64,000 nucleotides of DNA from Squalus acanthias (taxonomy: Eukaryota): the NCBI GenBank assembly GCA_030390025.1, contig CM059430.1:39804001-39868000 (forward strand), read 5' to 3'. Below are positions 27,526 to 61,097 of this stretch, in pieces. Position 1 is the stretch's first letter. Every line of letters begins with the position of its first letter. The position numbers were made by a program, and so were the translations under genes. Under the pieces are notes generated by a model. It made no database searches and was not told the DNA's origin. It worked only from the letters and a program-made list of their open reading frames with translations.

Positions 27526-27810
27526 AGTGGTGTAGAGCTTTGGGAACCAAAGGTCCAAAGTCACCTTTTTCCTCCCAAGCTTGCTGCATTTACCACGCCT
27601 GTCTCAAATTACTCATATATAGCCCCAGGACATCACTGCAGGAGTGCCTCAGGGCAATGTCCTAGGCCCAACCATCTTCAGCTGCTTCATTAATGACCTT
27701 CCCTCCATCATAAGGTCAGAAGTGGGGATTGCACAGTGTTCAGTACCATTCGCAACTCTTCAAATAATGAAGCAGTCCATGCCCGCATGCAGCAAGACCT
27801 GGACAATATT

Positions 27811-30800
27811 GAATAACTAGGGCTGTAGAGTGGGCTTTAAACTAATTAGTGGGGGGGAGGTTTCAAGAGAGCAAAAAATAAAAATGTCAGCGGAGAAGGC
27901 AATAGAGCAAAGTAGCAGTGGGGTAATTAAAAACCAGAGTGTGTCAGGAAGGGACAGAATATATAAAGATAAAGGTAAAGTAGTAAAGGGGGTAAAAGCA
28001 GGAATAAATTGTCACAAAACATATTTAAAAGTTCTTTATCTGAATGCACGCAGCATTCGTAACGAAATAGATGAGTTGACGGTACAAATAACTACACATG
28101 GGTATGATCTGGTGGCCATTACAGAATCATGGCTGCAAGGTGACCATGACTGGGAACTAAACATATAGGGGTATTTGACTATTAGGAAGGACAGACAGGA
28201 AGGAAAGGGAGGTGGGGTGGCTTTGTTAATAAAGGATGGAATCACTGCAATAGTGAGAAATGATATGGGTCAAAGGATCAGGATAGTGAAACAGTTTGGG
28301 TGGAGATAAGGAATAATAAGGGGAAAAAGTCACTAGTGGGCGTAGTCTATAGGCCTCCTAACAGTTGCAACTCAATTGGTCGGAGTATTAATCAGGAAAT
28401 AGTTGGGGCTTGTAATAAGGGAACAGCTATAATCATGGGAGATTTTAACTTTCATATTGACTGGACAAATCAAATTGGGCAGGGCAGCCTTGAGGAAGAG
28501 TTCATAGAGTGCATTAGGGACGGGTTCCTTGAGCAGTATGTTACTGAACCAACCAGGGGGCAGGCAATCTTAGATCTGGTCCTGTGTAATGAGACAGGAT
28601 TAATAAAAAATGTCCTAGTAAAGGATCCCCTTGGAATGAGTGACCATAACATGGTTGAATTCCAAATTCAGTTGGAGGGTGAGAGAGTTGGATCTCAAAC
28701 CAGCGTACTAAGCCTAAATAAAGGAGACTATAAAGGTATGAGAGCAGAGTTGACTAAAGTGGACTGGGAAAATAAATTAAGGTGTAAGACGGTACAGGAG
28801 CAGTGGTGTACATTCAAGGAGGTATTTCGCAACTTTCAAGAAAAATATATTCCACTGAGGAAAAAGGGGCGTAAAAGAAAAGACAGCCATCCGTGGCTAA
28901 GTGAAGTAATAAAGGATAGTATCTGACTAAAAACAAGGGCTTATAAAGTAGCCAAATCTAGTGGGAGGATAGAAGATTGGGAAGCATTTAAAAACCAGCA
29001 AAGAATAACTAAAAGATTAATTAAGAAAGGGAAGATAGATTATGAAAGTAAACTAGCAAAAAATATAAAAACAGATAGCAAGAGTTTCTACAGTTATATA
29101 AAAAGAAAAAGGGTGGCTAAAGTGAATGTTGGTCCCTTAGAGGATGAGACCGGGAAATTAGTAGTGGGGAACATGGAGATGGCAAATATGCTGAACAAAT
29201 ATTTTGTATCAGTCTTTACAGTAGAGGACACTAAAAATATCCCAACATTGGACAAACAAGGGGCTATAGGGGGGGAGGAGCTAAACACGATTAAAATCAC
29301 TAAGGAGATGGTACTCGGTAAGATAATGGGACTTAAGGCGGATAAATCCCCATGATCTGATGGCTTACATCCTAGGGTCTTGAGAGAAGTTGCGGTAGGG
29401 ATTGCGGATGCATTGGTGGTAATTTTCCAAAACTCCCTGGATTCAGGAAAGGTCCCAGCAGATTGGAAAACTGCTAATGTAACACCCTTATTTAAAAAGG
29501 GAGGTAGACAAAAGGCTGGAAACTATAGACCAGTTAGCCTAACATCTGTGGTTGGTAAAATGTTGGAGTCCATTATTAAGGATGCGGTAACAGGACATTT
29601 GGATAAGCATAACTTAATCGGACAGAGTCAGCATGGTTTTATGAAGGGGAAATCATGCTTGACAAATTTGCTCGAATTCTTTGAGGACGTAACAAACAAG
29701 GTGGATAAAGGGGAATCAGTGGATGTGGTGTATTTGGACTTCCAAAAGGCATTTGACAAGGTACCACACAAAAGATTACTGCACAAGATAAAAAATCATG
29801 GGATTGGGGGTAATATACTGGCATGGGTGGAAGATTGGCTATCTAACAAAAAACAGAGAGTTGGGATAAATGGTTCATTCTCGGGTTGGCAATCAGTAAC
29901 TAGTGGTGTTCCGCAGGGGTCAGTGCTGGGACCCTAACTCTTTACAATCTATATTAACGATTTGGAGGAGGGGACCAAGTGCAATGTATCCAAGTTTGCA
30001 GACGATACAAAGATGGGAGGAAAAGCAGTGAGTGAGGAGGACATAAAAAACCTGCAAAAGGACATAGACAGGCTAAGTGAGTGGGCAGAAATTTGGCAGA
30101 TGGAATATAATGTTGGAAAGTGTGAGGTTATGCACTTTGGCAGAAAAAATCAAAGAGCAAGTTATTATCTAAATGGAAAGAAACTGCAAAGTGCTACAGT
30201 ACAAAGGGATCTGGGGGTCCTGGTGCATGAAACACAGAAGGTTAGTATGCAGGTACAGCAGGTGATCAGGAAGGCCAATGGAATCTTGGCTTTTATTGCA
30301 AGGGGGATGGAGTATAAAAGCAGGGAAGTCTTGCTTCAGCTATACAGGGTACTGGTGAGGCCACACCTGGAATACTGCGTACAGTTTTGGTTTCCATATT
30401 TAAGAAAAGATATACTTGCTCTAGAGGCAGTTCAGAGAAGGTTCACTCGGTTGATTCTGGAGATGAGGGGGTTGACTTATGATGAAAGGTTGAGTAGGTT
30501 GGGCCTCTACTCATTGGAATACAGAAGAATGAGAGGCGATCTTATCGAAACATATAAGATTGTGAGAGGGCTTGATCGGGTGGATGCGGGGAGGATGTTT
30601 CCACTGATGGGTGAGACTAGAACTAGGGGGCATAATCTTAGAATAAGGGGCTGCCGTTTCAAAACTGAGATGAGGAGAAACTTCTTCACTCAGAGGGTAG
30701 TAAATCTATGGAATTTGCTACCTCAGAGAGCTGTGGAAGCTGCGACATTAAATAAATTTAAAACGGAGATAGACAGTTTCCTAGCTGATAAGGGAATGAA

Positions 30801-30934
30801 GGGTTATGGGGAGCGGGCAGGGAAGTGGACGTGAGTCTAGGTTCGGATCAGCCATGATCCTATTGAATGGCGGAGCAGGCCCGAAGGGTCGTATGGCCTA
30901 CTCCTGCTCCTACTTCTTATGTTCTTATGTTCTT
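27811..30934 (+). mobile_element. CR1 LINE with nearly complete ORF2 (APE endonuclease + RT), several stops/frameshifts, 6-bp TSD
   Basis: YLNARSIRN...AITESW, MGDFN, SDHN, YLDFQKAFD, GVPQGSVLGP, FADD; (TTCTTATG)n tail; AATATT at 27805-27810 and 30935-30940. Confidence 0.95.
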
Positions 30935-30974
30935 AATATTCAGGCTTGGGCTGATAAGTGGCAAGTAACATTCA

Positions 30975-33560: not shown

Positions 33561-36037
33561 ATTCATGCCACAGAAGTGCCAGGCAATGACTATCTCCAAC
33601 AAGCGAGAGTCTAACCACTGCCCCTTGACATTCAAGGGCATTACCATCACCGAATCCCACACTATCAACATCCTGGGGGTCACTATTGACCAGAAATTCA
33701 ACTGGACCAGCCACATAAATACTGTGGCTACAAGAGCAGGTCAGAGGCTGGATATTGTGCGGCGAGTGTCTCACCTTCTGACTCCCCAAAGCCTTTCCAC
33801 CATCTACAAGGCACAAGTCAGGAGTGTGATGGTATACTCTCCACTTGCCTGGATGAGTGCAGCTCCAACAACACTCAAGAAGCTCGACACCATCCAGAAC
33901 AAAGCAGCCCACTTGATTGGCACCCCATCCACCACCTTAAACATTCACTCCCTCCACCACTGGCGCACCGTGGCTGCAGTGTGTACCATCTACAAGATGC
34001 ACTGCAGCAACTTGCCAAGGCTTCTTCGGCAGCACCTCCCAAACCCGCGACCTCTACCACCTAGGACAAGGGCAGCAGATGCATGGGAACGCCACCACCT
34101 CCAAGTTCCCCTCCAAGTCACATACCATCCTGACATGGAAATATATCATCATTCCTTCATTGTCACTGGGTCAAAATCCTGGAAAATCCTCCCAAACAGC
34201 ACTATGGGAGTACCTTCACCACAGGGACTACAGCGGCTCAAGAAGGTGGTTCACCACCACCTTCTCAAGGGCAATTAGGGATGGGCAATAAATGCTGGCC
34301 TTGCCAGGGACACCCACATCCCAGGAAGGAATAAAAAAAAATACTGTATCCCAAAATGTTATTTTCTGAAAGAAGACTATCTCATTTGCATTTGAATGAG
34401 TGAACTTTTCTGTCAAAATAGCTTTGTGTCCTGAAATATTTGCCTTCCAACACTAACAAGAGTGTGGATGGCAAGATTGGCACAACAAACTGCCAGGACA
34501 GATAAAAAGATTAAAAGCTTCTAGGAACAATTCACTATCTGCTGGAGTGAGACTCCGTAGCTGCACTGGTCCCTTTATGGGCCTCCAAGTTTGAGGGTTA
34601 TGTGAGGACCATAAATCACATCATTACCAGGGTCCTCTACGACACTGATTACCAGCTCTGTAGGAATAATTCGTAATAATGTCATAATTCCAGCAATTTC
34701 ACGATCACCATTAAGTTCAATGGGGAGCCTAATGGCGAGAACAAACATTTATCGGCTTTGGCGAGACAAACGACGGAATGGCGCAAATCATGCAGAAATT
34801 TGCGGAGGATTGGAACGGATCATGTGTCTCTTTTACTCTGCCAATTGCTGGATTTTTCAGGAATGAATAATGCTGAGTGCCATTAACGCATCATTCGAAT
34901 GGCATGAATTCCCGACAATTTCTAGCCCATTATGTCAGCTAATGTACAAAAGAGCCTCAGCGGAAAAAATAAATAACAAAAAAAAATCAACACACAATGT
35001 CTTGTGGCTATAAAGGGAAAATTCTGACTAACCGCAACAAGACCGAAATGTAACATCTTACTTTGTTTCCTTAAGGTGGTCTTTTCTTTATTTTTCATAG
35101 TAGATGTCACTTATTTCGAAAACTCTGAATTTGGTTCAGGTAAAAGCAGTTTGGATTTAGCTATTCCTGTTCCTTTATGTTAAAAAAACCCATAAATGCC
35201 AAAGATCCCCTTCCCCTGCCCACACATTTTATTGGGCCTGTGACCAATCATGGGGTATGTTCGCAGTCTTTGGTCAATACTTGCCATAACAAATACAACC
35301 ATTCCATGAAAATGGATGTACTGAACTCTGTGGCAATCGCTGGAAATAAATTACTGAAGAACTTTCCAGTGCAGAACTGAAACCACTGTCGTAGGATTTA
35401 AGGAATATAATTACACAACATTCTGCATAGTTACCCTACATTAGATTTTCTCTTTAACACAAAACTCGAGCCTGTGTGTTAAACATCAAGTGAGTAAAAC
35501 TTCCAGTAATTCACGAAGTATTAAGTTCCCCCAGATGTTCACATTCCTCTTTTTGTTGCTAAAAATGATTCTTTAAGGTATATCACATGTAGTTCATTTC
35601 TCTTATTAATGGGGAAGTGGTTGCAAAATGGTTCCATACCATCTGACAACAATTATCAGTAAAATTAGTATGAAGTGGATCTAATGGCAGTAACCATTGG
35701 AGACACAAATGAAGCATGGTATATTTTAGTAGAAGGTCATTCTTAGTAGCAGAAGCATGAACTAAGCATCTGAAGAACTGACAGAATCATTTGAAATACA
35801 ATTAAAATTTTCCTCTTCTAATTTTAAAATATGGCCTGGGGCATTCGTTTGAGACTTGATTCGCAGCCGTGAAAACACTATTCATGTGGTAATCTGATTA
35901 ATAAGTTTTGTGCTTTGGGAAATAGATTGATGTTGTAAGGACAATGGATAAAAATGAGGCTCTCCTGTAGAACATGAGGCCTAGCCGTAATATTTTACAT
36001 GGGGTGAACAGCGATAGGTTTGTGTAGTAAGTGGGAA

Positions 36038-39000
36038 TTTTTTTTTTTAATTCATTCGTGGGATGTGGGCGTCGCTGGCAAGGCCAGCATTTATTGCCCA
36101 TCCCTAGTTGCCCTTGAGAAGGTGATGGTGAGCCGCTTTCTTGAACCGCTGCAGTCCGTGTGGTGAGGGTACTCTCACAGTGCTGTTAGGGAGGGAGTTC
36201 CAGGATTTTGACCCAGCGACGATGGAAGAAAAGTGATAGATTTCCAAGTCAGGATGGTGTGTGACTTGGAGGGGAACATGGAGGCGGTGGTGTTCCCATA
36301 CGCCTGCTGCCCTTGTCCTTCTAGGTGGTAGAGGTCGCGGGTTTGGAAAGTGCAGCCGAAGAAGCCTTGGCGAGTTGCTGCAGTGCATCTTGTAGATGGT
36401 ACACACTGCAGCCACGGTACGCCAGTGGTGGAGGGAGTGAATGTTTAAGGTGGTGGATGGGGTGCCAATCAAGTGGGCTACTTTGTCCTGGATGGTGTTG
36501 AGCTTCTTGTGTTGTTGGAGCTGCACTCATCCAGGCAAGTGGAGAGTATTCCATCACACTCCTTACTTGTGCCTTGTAGATGGTGGAAAGGCTTTGGGGA
36601 CTCAGGAGGTGAGACACTCGCCACAGAATACCCAGCCTCTGACCTGCTCTTATTGCCACAGTATTTATGTGGCTGGTCCAGTTAACTTTCTGGTCAATGG
36701 TGACCCCCAGGATGTTGATGGTGGGGGAATCGGTGATGGTAATGCCCTTGAATATCAAGGGGTAGTGATTAGACTCTCGCTTGTTGGAGATAGTCATTGC
36801 CTGGCACTTGTGTGGCGCGAATGTTACCTGCCACTTATCAGCCCAAGCCTGAATGTCGTCCAGGTCTTGTTGTATGCGGGCATGGACTGCTTCATTATCT
36901 GAGGAGTTGCAAATGGCACTGAACACTGTGCAGTCATCAGTGAACATTCCCATTTCTGACCTTATGTTGGAGGGAAGGTCACTGATGAAGCAGCTGAAGA
37001 TGGTTGGGCCTAGGACACTGCCCTGAGGAACTCCTGCAGCGATGTCCTGGCTGAGAGGATTGACCTCCAACCACCACAACCATCTTCCTTTGTGCTAGGT
37101 ATGACTCCAGCCAGTGGAGAGTGTTCCCCCCGATTCCCATTGACTTCAGTTTTACTAGGGCTCCTTGATGCCACACTCGGTCAAATGCTGCCTTGATGTC
37201 AAGGGCAGTCACTCTCACCTCACCTCTGGAATTCAGCTCCTTTGTCCATGTATGGACCAAGGCTGTAATGAGGTCTGGAGCCGAGTGGTCCTGATGGAAC
37301 CCAAACTGGGCATCAGTGAGCAGGTTATTGGTGAGTAAGTGCCGCTTGATAGCATTGTCGATGACACCTTCCATCACTTTGCTGATGATTGAGAGTAGAC
37401 TGATGGTGTGGTAATTGGCCGGATTGGATTTGTCCTGCTTTTTGTGGACAGGACATACCTGGGCAGTTTTCCACATTGTCGAATAGATGCCAGTGTTGTA
37501 GCTGTACTGGAACAGCTTGGCTAGAGGCGCGGCTAGTTCTGGAGCACAAGTCTTCAGCACGTCAGCCGGGATGTTGCCGGGGCTCATAGCCTTTGCTGTA
37601 TCCAGTGCGCTCAGCCGTTTCTTGATATCATGTGGAGTGAATCGAATTGGCTGAAGACTGGCTTCTGTGATGGTGGGGACCAGAGGAGGAGGCCAATTGT
37701 GATCATCCACTCGGCACTTCTGGCTGAAGATGATTGCAAATGCTTCAGCCTTGTCTTTTGCACTCACGTGCTGGGCTCCACCATCATTGAGGATGGGGAT
37801 ATTCATGGAGCCTCCTCCTCCCGTTAGTTGTTTAATGGTCCACCACCATTCACGACTGGATGCGGCAGGACTGCAGAGCTTTGATCTGATCCATTGATTG
37901 TGGGATCGCTTAGCCCTGTCTATAGCATGCTGCTTCCGCTTTTTAGCATGCATGTAGTCCTGTGTTGCAGCTTCCCCAGGTTGGCACCTCATTTTTAGAT
38001 ACACCTGGTGCTGCTCCTGGCATGCTCTTCTACACTCCTTATTGAACCAGGGTTGGTCCCCTGGCTTGATGGTAATGGTAGAGTGAGGGATATGCTGGGC
38101 CATGAGGTTATAGATTGTGGTGGAATACAATTCTGCTGCTGCTGATGGCCCACAGCGCCTCATGGATTCCCAGTTTTGAGCTGCTAGATCTGTTCTGAAT
38201 CTGTCCCATTTAGCACAGTGGTAGTGCCACACAACACGATGGAGGGTGTCCTCAGTGTGAAGATGGGACTTCATCTCCACAATGACTGTGCGGTGGTCAC
38301 TGCTATCAATGCTGTCATGGACAGATGCATCTGCAACAGGTAGATTGGTCAAGTAGGTTTTTCCCTCGTGTTGGTTCTCTCACCACCCGTCGCAGGCTCA
38401 GACTGGCAGCTATGTCCTTCAGGACTCGGCCAGCAGTGGTGCTACCAAGCCACTCTTAGGTGATGGACATTGAATCCCCCACCCAAAATACATTCTGTGC
38501 CCTTGCTACTCTCAGTGCTTCTTCCAAGTGGTGTTCAACATGGAGGAGTACTGATTCATCAGCTGAGGGAGGGCAGTAGGTGGTAATCAGCAGGAGGTTT
38601 CCTTGCCTATGCTTGAGAGTTCATGGGGTCCAGAGTCAATGCAAGGGCCACTCCTTCCTGACTGTATACCACTGTGCCACCACCCTGGTGGGTCTGTCCT
38701 GCCGGTGGGACAGGACATACCCAGGGATGGTGATGGAGGAGTTTGGGACATTGGCTGAAAGATATGATTCTGTGAGTATAACTATGTCAGGCTGTTGCTT
38801 GACTAGTCTGTGAGACAGCTCTCCCAATTTTGGCACAAGTCCCCAGATGTTGGTGAGGAGGACTTTGCAGGGTTGACTGAGCTGGGTGTGCCATTGTCGT
38901 GTCCGTAGCCAGTGCCGAGGTCGATGCCGGGTGGTCCGTCCGGTTTTATTCTTGTAGCAGTTTGTTACAACTGAATGGCTTGCTAGGCCATTTCAGAGGG

Positions 39001-39269
39001 CAGTTAAGAGTCAACCACATTGCTGTGGGTCTGGAGTCACATATAGGCTGGGACAGCAGATTTCTATCCCTAAAGGACATTAGTGAACCAGTTAGGTTTT
39101 TACAGCAATCCGATAGTTTCTTGGTCACCATTACTGATACCAGGTTTATTTAATTAACTGAATTTAAATTCCCCAGCTGCCGTGGTGGGATTTGAACTCA
39201 TGTCTCTGGATCATTTGTCCAGGCCTCTGGTTACCAGTCCAGTAACATAACCACTATGCTACCGTTCCC
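36038..39269 (-). mobile_element. Near full-length Zenon/jockey-like LINE (EN+RT, disrupted) with a tRNA-SINE-like 5' end
   Basis: EN start VLLTNIWGLVPK...PDIVILTESY at about 38870; SSDH; LKTCAPELAAPLAKLF; ALDIKAAFDRVWH; GVPQGSVLGP; FTDD; 3' UTR and poly(A) at 36038-36103. Confidence 0.88.
38960..39269 (-). promoter_or_regulatory. tRNA-derived head with Pol III A and B boxes plus SINE-like body
   Basis: Minus strand GGGAACGG-TAGCATAGTGG (A box, 39251-39261)...GAGTTCAAATCC (B box, 39188-39199). Confidence 0.75.
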
Positions 39270-40234
39270 AAATGCTGTCCCTCAATGCTGTTTGTGCTTC
39301 TCAGTGTTAATTTGAAGTGAGCTCTACAGTAACAAGAACATGCACCAATCAGCTGTGTAAAATATATAAAGTAAAAATACTTTAAATACTGATGACAAAA
39401 GACCTCCACCCTCTCCCAAAAAGAACTGAACCTGTTTTTATTCTTTTCCAAGAATACTCTGAATTTGAAAGAATTTTTATGATTCCATATATTTGCAATC
39501 CAGGTTTGAATATTGAACATAAGAGATCACAGGAATTGTATATTTTATTCTGTACTCAGTAGGTTCCAGAGTTTCCTCTCTGTGGTATGTTTAGAGCAGT
39601 GAAAGAATGAAAACGATCTGATGTGTCTAAGACAGATCAACAGAGCAGGAAGGACAACCCACTTCCCCTAGCGTTTCCCTTTTTTAAATGTATAGTTGAA
39701 GAAATATGCAGCATGCCAAGTTTCCAAGACGGGAACTTCCCAGTTTTTCTGAGGACACTGTACACTTCTTGTGTGTCTGTCAATGATTTCAGTAAAGTAC
39801 ACACAGAGTTGTAATTTATTTTGTGTGAAATTTTTTGTATTAGCTCTGTATCAAGTTTTTTAAAGCAGGGGAAATATTTATTGTATTTTATCTTCATTTG
39901 TATGTTATTGATTTTTTCTGTCGGTGCTGGGGAATGGAACACTTGGTGCTTATTGCTGACATCTGTTGCATACTCAGGTGAGGTATAACAGGGTTAGACA
40001 CAGAATAAGCTTCCTCTACTCTGTACACTTTGTTCTAGAAATTCATAAATATTATATATACATATGTAGGTTAACACTCCATTTTGCATTAACTATATTG
40101 AGTACACAGGCTGTTGATGTCTCCATGGCATCAGCTGCCAACAAAAGAAATGGATAATAACAGATTAAAACACACCACAAACTCCACAGACTAGGTGTGT
40201 ATGTATAAATAGATACATGGAGAGATGTACATCA

Positions 40235-42735: not shown

Positions 42736-44024
42736 TGCTGCAACAACCTGTAACAAGTAAAAGCAGAAGGTTATATTTTTGAATTTGTCTGTTCTAAGAG
42801 ATCCTATGGATAACATTAACTAACTGTAAAGGTTGCTGAGGTGTAGATGAATTGTGTTATTGGATGCAGTATTTTTACAGTAGTATGTTTCCTAAGTCCA
42901 AGTCCTAATTTGGAGGATTTGTTGTTTGTACTTATCTAAAAGAATGAACAAAAGACAAACACTTTTATTCTCAGAAATGTCTCAAGGTGCTTAACATTTA
43001 AAGAATTCCTTTGAACTGAACTGAGGCAAGTGTGACAGTTATTTTGCACACATTTTGAGCTGGCTGAAATTTGGAGGGCGAGTGGCATCGGGTCACCCGA
43101 TTGGTGCTCACAGCTTGCCATGATTATGATGATGAGGCTCAAGGACATATTTAGGAAGGTCCTCGGGCCTTGCCGTTCTGGCACGCCCCCTAGCTGTGCA
43201 CCGCACGTATCACATCTGGTTTTTGGAGCTAATGAATTTAGGACCCTCTGTTTCTCAAATATTCCTTGAGACATGGAGGGTCCTAAATTCATTAGCACCA
43301 AGAGAAATCACTTTAATTTCTCTCATCAATGTCTCCTATAGTTTCATGCTTGTTTCATTTCCTGTTCTTTACTCAAGCACTTTGCAAGTCTTTCTATTTC
43401 TTTTCCTTCATGTGTGTATTTTTTTGCCCATTCCTTTCCCTTTGTTCTGTTCCCGTTTAACTGCTGGTCATCTGTAAGATCTTCCACTTGGCTCTCAGTA
43501 TCCAAGCAAGTGGGCAATGATTGGCTAAAAGAAGGGATGATTTTTAGCAAACTGTAATCTCAAATTCTGAAAATTGATATGAGGATGTCATGTACATCAC
43601 TGGGTCAATCTTAGACTTCTAAAACCCATTAAACCCAGAAGAAATGCTGCCAAGTTAGTGAACTGTTCAATGGTTCCCAAAGTCTAATTGCAACTGGACA
43701 TGCAACCTTGCCTATGGTGCGCTAAAGGTTTATAAATATTGTGATCAGCAGAAATCCTGAGATTGAATCCTGGAATACTCTACAACATCCTCCTTTATCC
43801 TATTTTAGAGACAAATCTCTTGTGACACATTTTATCAAATGTCTTCTGAAAGCCTAGATGTCTAAACATCTGTTACATTACACTTGTCTACCAAGTCAGT
43901 TATATCCTCGAGGCTGGGCTGGGAATAACTGTCTTTACTCTTGTTAAATATGCTTGATTTGCTTTCTTTCTGATAGGCTCCAGTGTTTTTTTCCTACAAT
44001 AGATGACAAGCAAGCAGGCATTTA

Positions 44025-44125
44025 AAACAACAACAGAAAACGCTGGAAATACTCAGCAGGCCAGGCAGCATCCGTGGAGAGAGAAACAGAGTTAACGTTT
44101 CAGGTCGAAGACCTTTCGTCAGAAC
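44025..44125 (-). mobile_element. Roughly 101-bp Penelope pLTR-derived insertion
   Basis: Homologous to 48531-48630; flanked by CAGGCATTTA (44015-44024) and CAGGTATTTA (44126-44135). Confidence 0.75.
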
Positions 44126-44126: not shown

Positions 44127-44458
44127 AGGTATTTATCCTGGGATCATGTTTTCAAAAATGTAAACATTAGTTATGTTATGATCAATATCTTTTAATTTAA
44201 TGAGCTGTGAAACATTTCAGCTACAAATTCTCTATGGTCTACTCTCTTCTTCTTAAATATTTTCTTATGAATATTTATCAGCTTCAGATTTTCTTAAATG
44301 GCCATTTTGTTACTAATTTGTATTTTCTCCAAGAATTTAAAAATGCATCTCTTACCTTTTATATGAGTCATGATGTGGAGATGCCGGCGTTGGACTGGGG
44401 TGGACAAAAATGAGAAGTCGCACAACACCAGGTTATAGTCCAACAGATTTATTTAATT

Positions 44459-44496
44459 TTACAAGCTTTCGGAGCTGTCGCTCCTTCCTCAGGTAA
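44459..44496 (-). ncRNA. Hammerhead motif (family B), inverted copy
   Basis: Mirror copy with a perfect stem II, GGAGC-GACA-GCTCC. Confidence 0.72.
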
Positions 44497-44793
44497 GTTA
44501 GCAGTGAGAGAATCTCCCAGAATTCACAATTTAAACACAGACAAAATCTATTCAAATATTACCCTACATCAAAGACACACTAAGAGCACAGCCAAGACAA
44601 TGAGATGTGTCCCAGGGGGTCCAACGTGTCAAACCACCTGCTGGCTGCATATCCTGTCAATTTGTGTTGGTTTCTTGTGTTAGTCTTTTTTAAAAAAAAC
44701 ACCTGGGAAGACCGGCCATGATGTCAAGTCACGTTCTGTATCGTGACATGAACCCGATATCGCGATTGAGGCCATCCTCATGAGTGCCAAATC

Positions 44794-45183
44794 ATGGACA
44801 CAGATACCATCATCACACATGAGGACACTACCCACCAGGTACACGGTACATACTCATGTGACTCGGCCAACGTTGTCTACCTGATACGTTGCAGTAAAGG
44901 ATGCTCCAGAGCATGGTACATCGGCGAGACCATGCAGACACTGAGACAACGTATGAACGGACACCGCGCAACAATCGCCAGGCAGGAGGGTTGCCTCCCA
45001 GTCGGGGAACACTTCAGCAGCCAGGGGCATTCAGCCTCGGATCTGCGGGTAAGCGTCCTCCAAGGCGGCCTTCGGGATACACAACAGCGCAAAATCATAG
45101 AGCAGAAACTGATAGCCAAGTTCCGCACTCATGAGGATGGCCTCAATCGCGATATCGGGTTCATGTCACGATACAGAACGTGA
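44794..45183 (+). CDS. GIY-YIG endonuclease domain of the Penelope-like element (truncated ORF C-terminus)
   Basis: SCDSANVVYLIRCSKGCSRAWYIGETMQTLRQRMNGH...VGEHF...RKIIEQKLI...GLN: VVY/YIG, conserved R, H, E, N and Cys/His ligands. RT is absent and the Met is probably not the true start. Confidence 0.85.
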   Translation: MDTDTIITHEDTTHQVHGTYSCDSANVVYLIRCSKGCSRAWYIGETMQTLRQRMNGHRATIARQEGCLPVGEHFSSQGHSASDLRVSVLQGGLRDTQQRKIIEQKLIAKFRTHEDGLNRDIGFMSRYRT

Positions 45184-45415
45184 CTTGACATCATGGCCGG
45201 TCTTCCCAGGTGTTTTTTTTTAAAAAGACTAACACAAGAAACCAACACAAATTGACAGGATATGCAGCCAGCAGGTGGTTTGACACGTTGGACCCCCTGG
45301 GACACATCTCATTGTCTTGGCTGTGCTCTTAGTGTGTCTTTGATGTAGGGTAATATTTGAATAGATTTTGTCTGTGTTTAAATTGTGAATTCTGGGAGAT
45401 TCTCTCACTGCTAAC

Positions 45416-45453
45416 TTACCTGAGGAAGGAGTGACAGCTCCGAAAGCTTGTAA
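45416..45453 (+). ncRNA. Minimal type I hammerhead ribozyme motif (family B) in the pLTR
   Basis: TTAC-CTGAGGA-A-GGAGT-GACA-GCTCC-GAAA-GC-TT^GTAA; stem I TTAC/GTAA; palindromic AGCT. Confidence 0.72.
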
Positions 45454-45848
45454 AATTAAATAAATCTGTTGGACTATAACCTGGTGTTGTGCGACTTCTC
45501 ATTTTTATATGAGGACTTTGATTAAGCAGGTGGTGATGAGTAAGTCTGATTATGCAGCATCGGACTTAGAGATCTAAAACATTAAGCTGACTGACACATT
45601 GCAAACTGCCCTGTGTAAGTCCTACCAGGTTGAAGGCAGATGTCTGTCTAATAGTTGATGTGCAAAACTTGGTATGCAGGCATTGGATACCATTAAATGG
45701 GAGCTGCATGTGTGATTGTGCACTAATATAGCCAGGGTTCTGTGCCAACCTTGATTAGGTTGTGGAGAGCCAAACAATTACTGCTTAAGCTCCATACTTT
45801 TGACTGATGACTATCATTTATGTTCATGTTGTGCTCAGATGTTATGCT

Positions 45849-48530: not shown

Positions 48531-48567
48531 AGTTCTGACGAAAGGTCATCGACCTGAAACGTTAACT
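48531..48567 (+). ncRNA. Minimal type I hammerhead motif (family A), copy 1 of tandem pair
   Basis: AGTT-CTGACGA-A-AGGTC-ATC-GACCT-GAAA-CG-TT^AACT. Confidence 0.72.
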
Positions 48568-48776
48568 CTCTTTCTCTCTCCACGGATGTTGTCTGGCCTG
48601 CTGAGTTTTTCCAGCGTTTTCTGTTGTTATTTCGGATTTCCAGCATTCGCAGTATTTTGCTATCATATCTCTTAATGTCTCTTAATGTCTCTTAATCCCC
48701 CCTTTGTTCCTTTATCCCCTCCCCCTTTTCCCAGCTTTATCCTGGCCTTAAATCTATTTGATTTCCGGCTCTTTCC

Positions 48777-48813
48777 AGTTCTGACGAAAGGTCATCGACC
48801 TGAAACGTTAACT
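48777..48813 (+). ncRNA. Minimal type I hammerhead motif (family A), copy 2 of tandem pair
   Basis: Identical to 48531-48567. Confidence 0.72.
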
Positions 48814-51427
48814 CTCTTTCTCTCTCCACGGATGTTGTCTGGCCTGCTGAGTTTTTCCAGAGTTTTCTGTTGTTATTTTAGATTGATCCCCAGCCTGTGC
48901 TGCATTAGCTTGTCTCAACGGGAGCAGGGAGCTACAATTGAACTCAATGATCTTGAGCTAGAGAGGGAAACTATTTGCCAGACTTCCCACTTATGATATC
49001 CAGTGACCCCTAGTGGAAAATATGCATGTATGGGCACCTACTGAAGGTGAGAGTGGGCGCAGCCCCGATAACCTGATACTCTAGTAGCCCTTTGAGACTC
49101 TCATCAAAAGAAGCCATTTGGATGTGTTGCCAGAGGGCTACCGGCACACACAGAACTATACACTGGTCTGAGGTCAGTACCTTCAAAAAGGGAAAAAGGG
49201 AGAAAATGGGGAAAAAAATACTATTCTGGGTGTAGTGGGAACCTTTTTTTTAAAAAATTGGATTAGGATAAAAGACATTTATATATAAAGAAAAAGATTG
49301 TAATCAGTCTTATAACATTTAATATGGATGCAGAAAGCTGCAGTAAAGAAAATGCCACAAGACACTGCAATTTTTTAAAAAACCTTTAGACACCAACTTA
49401 AACACCGTTACACAGTAGCAAGTGCTGCTACATGTGAAATGTTACCATTAAGCCTGTGAAACTATTGCAATTGCCTTTTAAAAATAGTACAGGATTCCAT
49501 TCTCTTTGGAAAAAAATATACACCTGTAGTCAAGTAGCTATTAATTACATAGTACAAAGACAAATCTCCATATTAGCCATATGTGCAAAATATTGGTTTG
49601 GCAAATAGTGTAGTAAAGCCACAATTTTATTTTGATAAAACAGGCTCCATTAGTTCATACTATAGCTCTCATTGAAGCAATGGAAAAATGACTTACTAAA
49701 CTGTGGGAGAACATAAACCAATCATAATCGCATTTGTAAGAGTCATTCTAAAACAGACACTATTAGCAGTAAATTATTTTTCTTTAATTTCTGGAAAATA
49801 TTTAGTTATTAGTAATTTCACTACATGCATGACTATTACCCACACGTGAAAATGACAGTTTAAAATGACACTCAAGTGTCCATCCGAAGTAACATGCCCA
49901 TAAAATAAATCTAAGATCTCACTAGTCACTGCAAGTTCCAGATATCCTGCCACTGCCATAAATGAGACATCTCTGTACAGCTCAAAGCTATGGGGCCCTC
50001 CCACGCACGACAAAACTGCTATAACTCACTAGTTCAGTAAAATTTCTTCAAAATATATTTAACAGCCCAAAATATATTAAACAGCCCAAAAGAGGACAAA
50101 TGGGAGCAAGTCTGTATATTGTAAACACTGTGGGGGGGAAGGAACATTGAAACCTTGAATTATTTTAATGCAGTATATACACATTATTGCAGTCTACAAA
50201 ATAGGAAGCACTGAGTTCGAAGCATGAACTAACCTTCAATGTCTGAATTTCTTCCTGGAGTTCAAAGCAGACTCGGACTTTGCAACTATTGTGATCTTAG
50301 AAGTAAACAACTGAAGTACGTTCCCAGCTTTACATAACTGAAACACATTTCGGTGGATGCATGCAGTTATGATAAAGACACTGTGGTTTACATGATTGGA
50401 AGAAAGACAGAAGCTATGTCCTGTTACTCTAAACTAATTACCTCCTGTAAGGGAGGAGTTTATGCAAAGTGAGAATGTTCTTTAGCAGATTTTTTAAAGG
50501 GACACTGTATCCATTCAAAATGTTTGCAAACCAAATTTTTGTATGTGGAGGGAGTAGAGACAGGAGGCATTTGCATCATTTTTTGTTACATGTTCAAGTG
50601 GCATGATAATTAGTTTGAGGAAACCTCCATCATCATATGTGTTTCTAAAGAAAACAAAGACGTTAATCAAACACTCTTTCAGGATCTGATGATATCCTTT
50701 TAAATGCACAATATCTTTGGGAAATCTTATTTGGGGCAGAAATATAGAAGACTCATAGGTCTTTGCAGTTATTTTTCAACTGATGAAAGCCCAGTTTTTT
50801 AACATAATAGAATCTGTTCAATGGCTTTGATTCTGGGTGAGGGAACACTGCCCCCTTGCCTTGTTCTTTGCTCCAGCAATAATTTTCACAGACCTGCTGA
50901 CAGCATTTAGTGACACTTCATATTGTGTAAGGGTTATTAAATCCGTTGCTTATGGAAATACCCTAGTATGACTTCTAAATTAAGAACACAATAAAAAGGC
51001 TCAAAACAGGCAATTTTTCATCTAAAATACACCCACATACAAGATAGAACAGCTGCACATTTTGAAAGCAAACACCTAAAACTTCTGTGGGTTTTCAGTG
51101 ATATCAAACATAAGAGGAAGTACCAGGCCATGATCAAAACTTTCAATTTTTGACTAATAAAACATTTTATAAATAGATGCTATGACTAATTTATCCATTT
51201 TTCAGATGAGACATTAAACCAAGGCCCTATCTGCTCTCTCGGGTGGACATGAAAGATTCCAATCACACTAGTCGAAGAGAAGGGGAGTTCTCCCGGTGTC
51301 CTGGCCAACATTTATCTGTCAACCAACATCATTAAAACAGATTATTTGGTTATTTGTCTCATTGCTATTTGTGGGACTTTGCTGTGTGCAAATTGGTTGC
51401 CACGTTGCTCTATATTACAACAGTGAC

Positions 51428-51621
51428 TGTCGTAAGAATGAGCCTTACGCGTGGTGAACTTAAAGTAAGCTTTAATCAACTAAAAAGGTGCTACATACAA
51501 AAGAGGTCTTACTCTATGCCTCTCCAGGATCCAACTGCTCAGTCCAGTATTTATCCTGGACTAATCACAGGAAGTGATGCAATAAAGTTCGAGTCACAGG
51601 AAGCTGTATTGTGTTACCACA
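51428..51621 (-). repeat. 3' LTR
   Basis: No difference from 55645-55838 seen on base-by-base reading. Confidence 0.95.
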
Positions 51622-51639
51622 TTCTCCCCCCCCAAAAGA

Positions 51640-54600
51640 TTAGGAGGCCGGGATGCTCCCTCCATTTCGTAGCCGCCGGACGAGGGAGAGCCGCACCCGT
51701 TTGGGTTCTCGTAGTGGTAGAGGGCCCCTAGCCCGTTTACCCGCCGCGGGCCGTGGACCAGAGTCCGAGTGATCCAGCCCGCTCTGTGAGGGGTCAGGAC
51801 GATCCTGACTGTGTACTGGTGCCCGAACGGGTGTCGGGCAGGGCTGTGGCAGATCCGTTTCCGAGCGTATGGTACGGGGTGGATCGTGGCTGCGCGTGCG
51901 AGCCCCGACGGGCTCATAGTCAGTCTGCCCCAGGTCGGCACGCTGGAGTGAGGTACCAGCCGGCGTCAGATCCAGATCGTGATGAGAGGCACCTGGCGAG
52001 CCCAGAGATGTGCCTGGTACAATATCATCCCCTGGTGTCCCTCTATGTTTCGGCGGGCAGGGAGCCAGATCCCGCAATGACACGGTAGATTCCCGACCGT
52101 CAGGATACCGAATATAGGCGTAGGTAGGGTTGACGTCAGTGAGCTCAACCTCATCTACCAGGGGGTCATTCTTAGACGCCCGGACATATCTTCGGAGTAG
52201 CACTGGTCCCGGTGCAGTCAGCCACGACGGGAGAGATATCCCATAGGATGAGCGACGCTGAAATCGGAAGAACCGTTCATGAGGCGTCGTATTTGTGGCG
52301 GTCGAAAGGAGGGACCGTGTGGAGTGTAATGCGTCTGGAAGTACTGCTTCCCATTGCTGGTTGGGTAGGCCCCGAGATCTCAAAGCCAGACGTACCGCAT
52401 TCCAGATGATAGCGTTAAAACGCTCGACTTGCCCATTCCCGACCGGATGATAAGGCGTCGTTCTGCTGGCAGCAATACCCCGTTCCGAGAGATAGGCCTT
52501 GAGTTCTCCTGACATAAAAGAAGGGCCCCGATCCGAATGAACATAGGATGCCATGCCACAGAAAGCAAATACCTGCTCAAGGCAGCTGATAACCGTGGTC
52601 GTCAGCATATTGGGGCAGGGAAAGGCAAACGGAAAACGGGAATACTCATCGACCATGGTCAACAGATAAGTGTTGCGAGTTGAAGAGGGCAACGGCCCCT
52701 TAAAATCGATGCTAAGCCGTTGCATTGGCTGGGTCGCATGTATGAGTATACCACCCGAGGGGCGGAAAAACTGAGGTTTCAATTCTGCACAGACTCTGCA
52801 GTCCGAGCACATCTTCTTTACATCCCCGGTAGAGAATGGGAGATTTCGGGACCGCACGAAGTGTAGCATGCGAGTAACGCCCGGATGACACAACCCATCA
52901 TGGATGTCTACGAGCGTAGAGGGTGCCATGGCGGAGCAGAATGCTCGTGTGAGGGTATCCGGAGCCACATTCTCCTTGCCAGGTCGATAGTGGATGGTGT
53001 AACCAAAAGAGGCCAATTCCAGCCGCCAAAGCTGGATTTTATTATTTTTAATTTTGGTCCGTTTTCGATTATCGAGCATGAAGGCGACCGATCGCTGGTC
53101 CGTGATTAAGGTAAAGTGCTGGCGAGCTAGGAGATGAGTCCACTTCCGTACTGCCTCTATGATGGCTGTAGCTTCTTTCTCGACTGGAGCTCAGCCCCTT
53201 GAAAAGTCCTGGACAAAAATGCCACCGGACGACCTTCCTGATTCAGAGTGGCCGAGATCGCCACCTCCGAGGCATCACACTCAACAACAAAAGGAAGACT
53301 CTCATCGATGGAGTGAAGAGCCGCTTTCTCCAACTGTTTTTTCAGGAGGTTAAAGGCTGCAACAGCCGCTGTGTCTTCAGTAGAGGTTGGATTCGGTCCG
53401 AGAAGTTAGGAATCCATTTAGCATAGTATGCAAACAGGCCGAGGGCCCGGCGCAAGGAGGCCGGATTCTTAGGTGGCGGGAGCTCTTGGAGTGGGCGAAG
53501 CCTTTCAGGGTCAGGTTTAATGATGCCATTGCCCACACAATAGCCAAGGATGTTGATGGTTGGTTGTGACTCAATGGATTTAGCCGCATTTAATGTCAAA
53601 TTACGGTGCTGGAGTGCATCCCAAAATCGTTGGAGATTGGCGTCATGTTCCCGCTGATTGCGACCTGTGACAGTAATATTGTCCAGATAAGGAAACGTAT
53701 CCTTCAAGTCTTCCTGTTTGACCAGGTCATCCATTGCTCGCTGGAAGACAGCCACTCCATTAGTGACCCCAAAGGGGAGGCGACGAAATTGATACAGCCG
53801 TCCATTGGCTTCAAAGGCCGTATACTGCTTGTCTGAGACCTTCAAGGGTACCTGATGATAGGCACTTTTCAGATCATATGTTGAGAACACCGTGTACTCA
53901 GCCAGTTTATTAACCATATCATCGATGCGCGGCAATGGGTATGCGTCCAAGTCCGTATATTGATTGATGGTCTGTGAATAGTCAATGCACAGCCGTTTCT
54001 TGTGAGGTTGTAGAGGGTTCTTAACAATAACGACCTGGGCGCGCCATGGTGACGAACAAGGCTCGATGATATCCTCTGCTAAAAGCCGAGAAATCTCAGC
54101 CGCAATAAAAGACTGGTCTTCCTGACTGAAACGTCGTGACTTTGTTATAATCGGTTTGCATCGAGGAGGGATACTGGTAAACAGTGAGGGTTCATCCAGT
54201 GAAGCTGCTGACAATGCACAGAACAGTAATCGAGGTCGTATATTAGAAATAGTGAGTTCAGGTTTGGATCCGCCGAACTCAATGGTGAGCTTCTTATGCT
54301 GCTTTTGAAAATCCAGCCCTAAGATAAGATCACTACATAAGTCCTTGAGCACCGAAAGCCGGGTGGAGGGATACCTGTGACCATTAAGTGTTATTTCAAC
54401 CATACAAAAGCCAGAAATTCTGGTATTAAGTGATGACTGAGCCATCGCAATTGCCTGGTCCGATGGGAAAACATGTAGCTTTAACTCTGCAACAATCTGT
54501 TCCCTAATGAAACTATCAGTGCTACCTGAGTCAATTAAGGCATCTAAAGTATGTCCATTAATTGATGCTTTTGTAGCTGCATGGAATAGGTTCTGAGGAC

Positions 54601-55567
54601 AAGCAGCTGTAATTGGTGTCGTTGCACAAAGAGTGGCTGAAACTCTAGGTGTGTTTCTTCGAGAGAAAACCCGAGAGGAAGCATGATAGATTTTAGCCGG
54701 AACATCTTGATAGGCCCTTACCGGGGCAGTTCGGTAGGACTTAGCTTGATAAGCCCTCGTAGAGGCTCTTGATAGGCAAACCTTTGCAAAATGACCCTTT
54801 TTGTTGCAATGACTGCAAAACGCATTGCGAGCAGGGCAGAATTTCCGAGGGTGAAACTCATCACCACAAAAGAAGCATTTCTTAGATTGCCAAGAGGCTG
54901 CCACAGTGGGGTCATCATCCTCTTCATCAGTGAAGTCATCAGATTGATCGTCAGGGATAAAGTCCTCCCTAATAGAGTTCACCTGTGGCCTCTTAAATTG
55001 CCTGACTGTAGTTAAGGCAGCAGACCGAGGTCTGGGCACTGTATAAAGGTCTGCATTTCTTTTTGCCAGATCTAGAGAGCAAGCCATGTCATAAGCTCTC
55101 TGAAGCTCAAGTGTCTTACTTTCCAGTAGATGCTGGCGTATAAATGGGGAGGCAAGCCCGCAGATGAAAGCATCACGGATCATTTCTTCACGGTACAGCT
55201 CAGCTGAGGCCGCCTGAAAGTTACAGTCCATACTAAGTCTGCGAAGCTCTTGGAGGAATTTATCAATGGATTCCTCCGGCCCTTGTTGGGCTGTAGCTAG
55301 TCGATGTCTGGCATAGACCTCATTCGGTGTCTTAGTATATAGTTTTTTAAGCGTCCGAATTGCCTCCTCGTAACTGCCCCATTCCTCAACATACTGAAAT
55401 ACATTCGGAGTGACACAGTTGATGAGTATCCGCAACTTTGTGTCATCATCAGCCTTGCAATGTTCGAGAAAATTGTCAAACGTGCGATATCAGTGTTTCC
55501 ACACCTTACCGGCTGCTGGGGTGTTTGGGTCCAAGTCAAGACGCGATGGTTTAAGGATGTTTTCCAT
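51640..55567 (-). pseudogene. Single gag-pol polyprotein with one stop and two frameshifts
   Basis: ATG at 55567 (MENILKPSRLDLDPNTPAAGKVWKH*YRTF, TGA at 55490-55492); two CCHC knuckles; protease LIDSGS; RT DLKSAYHQ/LPFG/YLDN; RNase H VECDAS...EKEA...TDQRS with frameshifts near 53371 and 53187; integrase HHCC + D,D,E. Confidence 0.92.
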
Positions 55568-55644
55568 GATGGGTGATTCCCTGGATCCTTAGTTCCGAGT
55601 TCGTCCAAAAAGTTTGAGTGCGAAGTTTTCAAAGTTGATTAAAT

Positions 55645-55838
55645 TGTCGTAAGAATGAGCCTTACGCGTGGTGAACTTAAAGTAAGCTTTAATCAACTAA
55701 AAAGGTGCTACATACAAAAGAGGTCTTACTCTATGCCTCTCCAGGATCCAACTGCTCAGTCCAGTATTTATCCTGGACTAATCACAGGAAGTGATGCAAT
55801 AAAGTTCGAGTCACAGGAAGCTGTATTGTGTTACCACA
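55645..55838 (-). repeat. 5' LTR
   Basis: See 3' LTR; contains two TCACAGGAAG repeats, GATAAATA and ATTAAA on the minus strand. Confidence 0.95.
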
Positions 55839-58032: not shown

Positions 58033-58559
58033 CAGTACTGATGGGAGCGATGCATTGTCTGAGGTACCATCTTTCAGATGGAACGTTAAACCAGCCTGTT
58101 TGTGTGTATGTAAAAGATGCCAAGGCACTAATCAAAGAACAGCAGAGAAATTCTCCCAGTTTCCTGGTCAACATTTAACTCTTCGTCAATGTCACCAAAA
58201 ACAGATTAACTTGTCATTCTCATCGCTGTTTGTGGGACCTTGTTGTATGCAAAATTGGCTCCTGCATTTTTTAAAATTTGTTTATGGGATGTGGGCGTCG
58301 CTGGCAAGGCCAGCATTTATTGCCCATCACATATGTCCTATAAGAAACAAAAGCATTGTTTATCTCAATGTAGACATACTATCCAATCCACCAGCAAAGA
58401 TTCATGCAGGTCAATGCCTGCCTCCCTGGAAGCTTCTAAAAATGCTTTCACTTTAAGGCCATTATCTGTGCCACCCTTACCTGAAATTACTAAATATATA
58501 GATGAAGAAAAAATATTAGAAGCAGCCCACATAGATTTCAGAAATGAAGATCATGTTTG

Positions 58560-60666: not shown

Positions 60667-61097
60667 AAACATAGAAACATAGAATCTAGGAGCAGGAGTA
60701 GGCCATTCGGCCTGTCGAGCCTGCTCCACCATTCAATACGATCAGGGCTGATCATCCAAATCCAGTACCCTGTCCCTGCTTTAATCCCCACAGTACACAT
60801 ATCCCACCCTACCCCCGTAACCCCACGTATTTAATTTCCCCTAACATATCCCATCCTATCCCCATAACCCCACATATTTAATCCCCCCTAACACTAAGGG
60901 TCAATTTATCATAGCCAAATCAACCTAACCCGCACATTTTTGGACTGTGGGAGGAAACCGGAGCACCCGGAGGAAACCCACGCAGACACGGGGAGAATGT
61001 GCAAACTCCACACAGACAGTCACCCGAGGTCAGATTCGAACCCGGGTCCCTGGCGCTGTGAGGCACCAGTGCTAACCACTATGCCACCGTGTTGCCC
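60667..61097 (-). mobile_element. Full-length HE1-like V-SINE with CR1-derived tail
   Basis: Head GGGCAACACGGTGGCATAGTGGTTAGCAC...GGTTCGAATC; V-domain tgtgtggagtttgcacattctccccgtgtctgcgtgggtttcctccggg; tail matches the CR1 3' end at 10800-10908. Confidence 0.9.

Follow-up and report, generated by a model that had tools for sequence, protein, structure and literature searches.

A tRNA-derived head, a putative Pol III promoter, at the 5′ end of elasmobranch Zenon LINEs

Introduction

LINEs and SINEs stand on two sides of a divide, the former being protein-coding and transcribed by Pol II and the latter non-coding and transcribed by Pol III. Several SINEs, such as Bov-tA, AfroSINE, SINE2_Gav and CoeSINE4, join a tRNA head to the 5′ part and the 3′ tail of a LINE (PMC5786205). 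These SINEs derive from RTE or Vingi, the head having been added to a deleted LINE while the autonomous partner is head-less, and only RTE, Ingi, Vingi and R2 are named as sources of such 5′-plus-3′ derivatives in the accessible part of that article. A tRNA-like sequence matching many tRNA SINEs is also carried by a LINE group of the RTE clade, RTE-1_DAn, which is described there in one sentence; nothing on its tRNA-like part was found in the supplement. In elasmobranchs, the tRNA-headed SINEs described include SacSINE1, in which a Deu domain is combined with an L2-2_CM-like tail (PMC5499810), and HE1 (V-SINE), which pairs with HER1 (PMC3747384); both were compared by description.

Zenon LINEs, of the CR1 group, are defined by the lack of ORF1 and by a poly(A) tail, and have been found in elasmobranchs, coelacanth and hagfish, the elasmobranch ones not yet being in repeat databases (PMC13343379). 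According to the accessible part of the same source, their coverage ranges from 28.5 Mb (Hypanus) to 290 Mb (Carcharodon), and intact ORFs are rare (3/612, 1/1419, 0/2313, 1/294, 0/59 and 0/396 in the six values given). The words "tRNA" and "promoter" do not occur in its main text, where "SINE" occurs once, in a reference title, and "tRNA" does not occur in its supplement, so the structure described below seems to be unremarked there.

Here, a Zenon copy of Squalus acanthias with a tRNA-derived head is described. The window, that is, the whole stretch of 64,000 nucleotides that was analyzed, had previously been interpreted from its letters alone (the sequence-only reading). In Zenon it is the autonomous LINE that bears the head, whereas in the Bov-tA-type SINEs the autonomous partner does not. 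The consensus sequences of the family are already published; a description of the Pol III-type head and of the short form was not found in the open-access literature, which was the scope of the search (Repbase, Dfam, SINEBase and subscription papers lie outside it).

Results and Discussion

The Zenon element and its parts

A Zenon-type LINE copy of 3.2 kb, broken and decayed, spans positions 39269-36038 on the minus strand (Table 1), and its 5′ end corresponds by eye to the first base of SquAca_Zenon-1. The first 400 nt match those of seven published consensuses of the same family, SquAca_Zenon-1, -2 and -3, CarCar_Zenon-1, RhiTyp_Zenon-1, ScyCan_Zenon-1 and HypSab_Zenon-1, the SquAca rows being the closest; these consensuses are likewise 3.2-3.3 kb long, with one ORF, no ORF1 and a poly(A) tail (PMC13343379). 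The motifs of the window are contained in the published elasmobranch Zenon rows alone, and the rest of the 400 nt was matched by eye. By these matches the element is assigned to the elasmobranch Zenon LINEs of the CR1 group, the placement of the reverse transcriptase resting on the tree given in PMC13343379 for the matching consensuses.

Two pieces of the ORF match Pfam RVT_1, with E values of 3e-15 and 8e-15, and its N-terminal piece is 44% identical to the endonuclease of the full-length protein P0002 (E 4e-13). Three-frame translation is consistent with a single APE-RT ORF and no ORF1. The absence of ORF1 noted by the sequence-only reading was thus confirmed, but its presentation as part of the surprise was overstated, since Zenon elements are defined by lacking ORF1 (PMC13343379), which is therefore ordinary here. 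In the 3′ tail, AATAAA sits 40 nt ahead of the poly(A). As a separate observation, a 36-nt piece at 30938-30973, 97% identical to the Zenon RT region, lies directly after the 3′ end of another LINE copy at 28454-30926.

Table 1. Coordinates of the Zenon element, its parts and related copies in the window.
Feature	Position	Strand	Remarks
tRNA-derived head, 5′ end of the element	39184..39269	-	Rfam tRNA match; opens 7/7 elasmobranch Zenon consensuses
A box, type 2 Pol III internal promoter	39251..39261	-	TAGCATAGTGG; by eye in 7/7 consensuses
B box	39188..39199	-	GAGTTCAAATCC; by eye intact in 6/7 consensuses, one base short in the ray
Non-coding body common to LINE and short form	38966..39183	-	20-nt motif in exactly the 7 elasmobranch Zenon rows
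LINE-only linker, ~100 nt	38867..38965	-	A-rich tract, then Arg-rich peptide in the endonuclease frame; without in-frame AUG
Single APE endonuclease-reverse transcriptase ORF	36104..38866	-	In this copy, interrupted by frameshifts and stop codons
3′ tail	36038..36114	-	AATAAA 36095-36090; poly(A), 11 A, 36048-36038; retained in the short form
Second copy of the same LINE, 5′-truncated	33561..34341	+	91% identical, without TTTT
Internal fragment of the same LINE	27625..27810	+	85% identical
3′ tail fragment, same family	58267..58328	-	90% identical

[quoted passage not shown]

The head contains D-arm-, anticodon-arm- and T-arm-like parts, with a variable region about 20 nt longer and without the acceptor stem. 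The tRNA-like start of the minus-strand LINE and both of its boxes were found where the sequence-only reading had placed them, the distance between the A and B boxes being 51 nt. A strict A/B pattern, based on the textbook consensus, matched at two places in the 64 kb, the Zenon head and an ordinary SINE at 61086, against 0.017 pairs expected per window in 60 Markov-2 simulations. On a 181-nt stretch, the Rfam tRNA model RF00005 was the best of three matches, over model positions 7-64, and scored 18.1 bits on the head (E 0.17), which is below the gathering score of 29. The head was not picked up in the Rfam scan of the whole window, ARAGORN did not call it as a tRNA, and the head alone folds no better than shuffles (z -0.47). 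Among the elasmobranch consensuses, in which the boxes are kept as listed in Table 1, the spacer length and the acceptor-stem region vary by eye.

The body is about 215 nt long, and its terminal ~150 nt hardly differ from the sharks to a ray; by eye, the body is better conserved than the head. About 10 nt are missing from it near 39048 in this copy, where aligned contigs have a loose end. The folding score of 38960-39130 was z -2.0 in this damaged copy, and several hairpins are visible by eye in the conserved body. Neither a SINE tail nor a poly(A) lies between the head and the ORF, in agreement with the earlier interpretation, and the first endonuclease motif, then estimated at about 100 nt, begins 103 nt past the end of the body and 406 nt past the 5′ end. 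The Zenon head and body did not match the CR1-tailed SINE of the window at 60668-61099.

The head-to-ORF junction across the family

The junction was compared over the first 400 nt, by eye, in the ten Zenon consensuses of the PMC13343379 supplement. All seven shark and ray consensuses, from five species, open with the same head and body and continue towards the endonuclease, and the 20-nt body motif of the window occurs in exactly these rows among the ten. None of the three hagfish and coelacanth Zenons shows such a head by eye, and their 5′ ends may be poorly resolved.

Four public runs were also aligned to positions 35900-39500 at 80% likeness: the contig sets X1, X3 and X9, from three organisms, and the raw-read run X24. 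The summed contig depth of the three sets, which gives no copy number, was 0.1-10 million across 36021-39287, the flanks having 5-19, and it declines along the element from 3′ to 5′, as in 5′-truncated LINEs. The summed depth (again no copy number) in X1, X3 and X9 was 868k, 319k and 1105k in the head bin and 900k, 116k and 1246k in the LINE-only bin 38804-38924; the depth over the head is therefore similar to that over the LINE-only linker in X1 and X9, and almost threefold higher in X3. Among the contigs listed, a 350-nt contig of X1 with 45 differences bridges the body and the endonuclease, and none of the pieces listed covers the entire element. No stack of loose ends was seen at the 5′ end among the loose ends listed. 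X24 yielded only 164 reads, with zero depth over the head. Three other runs, presumed to be RNA, contain 35-43% of the sequence words.

In addition, a body-derived peptide was found ahead of the endonuclease in 4 of 169 database proteins, P0027, P0029 and P0053 by tblastn and P0026 by eye, the linker peptide being present in the whale-shark gene model P0026 too. Three of the four are separate whale-shark gene models; as these may be spliced, they show the order of the parts and not their contiguity. Motif scans gave no match in metagenome and genome contigs, and two viral-contig matches to an 18-nt motif were taken as chance.

Taken together, these comparisons, of which that of the consensuses is the decisive one, show that the head-to-ORF junction is the normal 5′ end of the elasmobranch Zenon family. 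Whether the junction was unique to this locus had been put forward as a check, and the same junction in all seven elasmobranch consensuses and in independent contigs shows that it is not. The chance adjacency of head and LINE, which the earlier interpretation had left open, is countered by the consensuses, the contigs and the whale-shark models. A one-off template-switch chimera, or a chance insertion at this locus, would fit the absence of a TSD, which had been claimed and was seen again at both ends of the 39269-36038 element; with an identical junction in seven of seven consensuses, independent contigs and whale-shark loci, this explanation is considered extremely improbable, in effect refuted by the consensuses, and the lack of a TSD no longer matters because the junction is family-wide.

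A short form sharing the head, body and tail

The sequence-only reading had pointed to a common shark SINE with this head and body on the 3′ tail of this LINE, and such a short form does exist in the contigs of three organisms. It is about 380 nt long, and the body is joined in it directly to the LINE 3′ tail. The two leading joints among those listed, 36114-38966 and 36114-38969, were present in at least 29 contigs of X1, 21 of X3 and 35 of X9, and in none of X24; the same two breakpoints thus recur in three organisms, at a low summed depth (66-441, from incomplete counting). The contigs bearing these joints probably carry the whole head. Further breakpoints were 36166-38997 and 36166-38954, and in four X24 reads the body end joined to the tail is a little longer. 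At 36041/36042, in the 3′ tail, loose ends whose flanks are unrelated number 1883-2386 per run.

Like a tRNA-derived SINE, the short form has a tRNA-like head containing both boxes (with an Rfam score below the cut-off), is short and non-coding, and ends with the 3′ tail of its partner LINE. The identification of SacSINE1 as the short form was not supported, as its tail differs from the Zenon tail of the latter. The earlier statement that SINEs normally share only the 3′ tail with a LINE was overstated, since the SINEs of RTE and Vingi share the 5′ part of the LINE too (PMC5786205). Furthermore, the element had been interpreted as either a SINE-headed LINE or the parent of a short form; both structures hold, and they are not alternatives.

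Regarding the order of events, CAA is present on both sides of the main short-form break and, together with the several breakpoints, this favors a repeated internal deletion from the LINE. In the opposite order, a short SINE made of a tRNA head and the former 5′ UTR and tail of the LINE would have come first, and recombination within the body common to both would later have returned its head to the LINE; this would alter the history only and leave the present structure unchanged. A bipartite route of this kind is documented for RTE and Vingi (PMC5786205), and the body has no known source. However, several breakpoints with CAA flanking the main one are what repeated deletion is expected to leave, such derivatives were known by 2018 from RTE, Ingi, Vingi and R2 alone (PMC5786205), and no head-less consensus is present among the seven elasmobranch ones. 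A SINE-first origin is thus rather unlikely, while still deserving some weight.

The head as a putative Pol III promoter

The tRNA-derived head is the putative Pol III promoter of the Zenon LINE, a role that we judge slightly more probable than its opposite. In this copy, sense runs of three or more T numbered 11, against 22.5 in shuffles (P 0.002), and when the amino acids were kept constant 8 were seen where 16.8 were expected (P 0.005), while runs of A, C and G, as well as the two CR1 copies of the window, were undepleted at this length. The observed/expected ratio of TTT was 0.45 in this copy, and higher (0.68-1.67) in all 21 distant relatives examined, which were those with long matches among 42 metagenome loci (24-40% to P0003). 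TTTT occurs twice in this copy, against 4.6, 1.9 and 1.4 expected under models of order 0, 1 and 2, and once against 3.2 with the amino acids fixed (P 0.14), and the CR1 copies are equally low in TTTT on the latter measure (P 0.04 and 0.06). The suggested check for a depletion of sense TTTT gave a divided answer in this copy: runs of three or more T are halved, but TTTT alone is not significantly rare. These statistics comprise several tests on one decayed copy, and the low T could reflect a codon bias for ATC over ATT and TTC over TTT.

Both TTTT runs look private to this copy, as 97-99% of the depth carries another base at 38486, the site of one of them, and the aligned contigs differ at 36232-36229, the site of the other. 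In the first 400 nt, TTTT is absent by eye from all seven elasmobranch consensuses and present in the three non-elasmobranch rows, the seven being homologous and not independent. None of the 21 distant relatives, whose true 5′ ends are uncertain and which may lie outside Zenon, has an A/B pair in the 71-1159 nt seen upstream. ARAGORN found no tRNA at 20 of the 42 distant loci, which says little, since it also missed the head of the window itself.

A different explanation is that the head is fixed but the mRNA is a capped Pol II RNA, originating from host read-through or from a promoter in the body, so that the head would be a passenger or would drive only the short form or the template RNA. 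The translation of an uncapped RNA would then not be needed, and the AATAAA placed ahead of the poly(A), the TTTT that is not significantly rare and the better conservation of the body (by eye) all agree with a Pol II mRNA. Moreover, the expectation in PMC5786205 is that LINE 5′ regions act as Pol II promoters, which may conflict with Pol III. On the other hand, one would not expect a passenger to have kept the A and B boxes, and a common 5′ end that is sharply defined, in five species; runs of three or more T stay depleted through the ORF, and the AUG is missing all the same. This explanation is regarded as unlikely, although well worth considering. The AATAAA itself does not decide between the polymerases, because the Pol III transcripts of some mammalian SINEs are reported to be polyadenylated via AAUAAA (PMC8466645). 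Pol III promoters in Penelope-like elements, considered as a precedent, were not borne out by the accessible part of 10.1101/2021.04.23.441226.

The head might also be a processing signal: element and host RNA would be made as one transcript, which would be cleaved at the head in an RNase P-like manner, comparable to the HDV-like ribozymes of R2, RTE and Ingi LINEs. This would explain the precise 5′ end, and in six LINE clades a ribozyme is known to define the 5′ end (PMC5786205). Nevertheless, the acceptor stem is not retained (as judged from the extent of the Rfam match and, by eye, the consensuses), the window gave no match to a ribozyme family up to an E of 1, and the conserved part is the box sequence, all of which make a processing signal improbable.

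The start of translation

The endonuclease frame is open over a span of 48 codons from the stop at 38995, and no ATG, CTG, GTG, ACG, TTG or ATH codon occurs in that frame before VLLT. The nearest ATG to the ORF, at 38894, is out of frame, as the sequence-only reading had noted; it is a mutation of this copy, since the published consensuses that reach that far have ACG by eye. An ATG at the position of 38949 is present in six of the seven consensuses and is also out of frame by eye (compare P0028, P0031 and P0054), and no slippery site stood out near it. An ATG at the position of 38991 is in the endonuclease frame, followed by TAG as the third codon, in the main consensuses of three of the five species by eye, and is not so placed in those of the other two or in this copy, its frame differing between species; a start there with stop readthrough was rejected, as it is not conserved among the five species. 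The proposed search of the consensuses for a start codon consequently yielded no conserved in-frame AUG (by eye, first 400 nt).

The closest full-length relative found, P0002 (40%), has its Met about 115 residues before the endonuclease motif, and the shark element has only about 33 codons between the body and that motif. The position of the Met in P0002 suggests that the head replaced an old 5′ end. Pol III RNA is uncapped and, as an in-frame AUG is not conserved either, the protein may come from another transcript. Our guess is an AUG-independent initiation, perhaps aided by the conserved body, the near-invariant last 150 nt of which are a candidate translation or packaging signal.

Proposed mechanism and significance

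Before the split of sharks and rays, the 5′ end of a Zenon ancestor, probably including its start codon, would have been replaced by the tRNA-derived head and the body. With the head as an internal promoter bound by TFIIIC on the A and B boxes, Pol III would make an RNA of 3.2 kb that starts at 39269, crosses the ORF and runs into the A tail, stopping at the next T run of the flank. Target-primed reverse transcription may then copy that RNA, beginning at its 3′ tail, and every full-length copy would in this way carry its own promoter. The short form, that is, the element without its ORF, would be moved by the enzyme of the LINE, which would make it in effect a SINE. The use of Pol III, the order of these events and the mobilisation of the short form are deduced from the structures described above.

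In its complete form, the proposal states that the only RNA of Zenon is a Pol III transcript of 3.2 kb, purged of T runs and translated independently of cap and AUG by means of the body, in a family that pre-dates the shark-ray split, makes up as much as ~7% of some genomes and gives rise to SINEs by internal deletion. As a whole it is put forward tentatively, with less than even confidence.

If a tRNA-type promoter is a fixed part of a major LINE family of vertebrates, the divide between LINEs and SINEs is broken. Such a family would offer a one-step route to a new SINE, by deletion of the ORF, would allow the translatability of a long Pol III RNA to be tested in nature, and would extend the 5′-plus-3′ derivatives to the CR1 group. 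In practical terms, repeat annotation of shark genomes will split such elements into a "SINE" and a "LINE".

Other features of the window and of shark gene models

Pieces of the Zenon ORF were found within the annotated shark gene models P0012, P0017, P0018, P0019, P0025, P0001, P0032 and P0033, which include anoctamin-7-like, LRRC32-like and ercc5. These are probably annotation errors and possibly exonised copies.

Two LINE copies that we take to be CR1, and which served as controls for the T runs, lie on the plus strand at 28454-30926 and 61099-63571 and are 88% identical; the latter has stop-free stretches of 533 and 248 codons. The ordinary tRNA-headed SINE at 60668-61099, on the minus strand, is placed head to head with it at 61099; it carries A and B boxes, ends in the 3′ tail that these CR1 LINEs have, and presumably resembles HE1/V-SINE.

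A young LTR retrotransposon occupies 51428-55838, with two terminal repeats of 194 nt that are 100% identical, start with TG and end with CA. Its ORFs on the minus strand, 55489-53342 (715 aa) and 53190-51640 (516 aa), correspond by eye to gag-protease-RT and RNase H-integrase, in a Gypsy-like order. An inverted repeat of 382 nt (44406-44787 and 45125-45506), 99.5% identical and 337 nt apart, is a very recent fold-back or MITE-like structure. Finally, a repeat of about 105 nt occurs three times, at 44020-44125, 48531-48638 and 48777-48884, with 92-97% identity, two of the copies being in tandem and one inverted.
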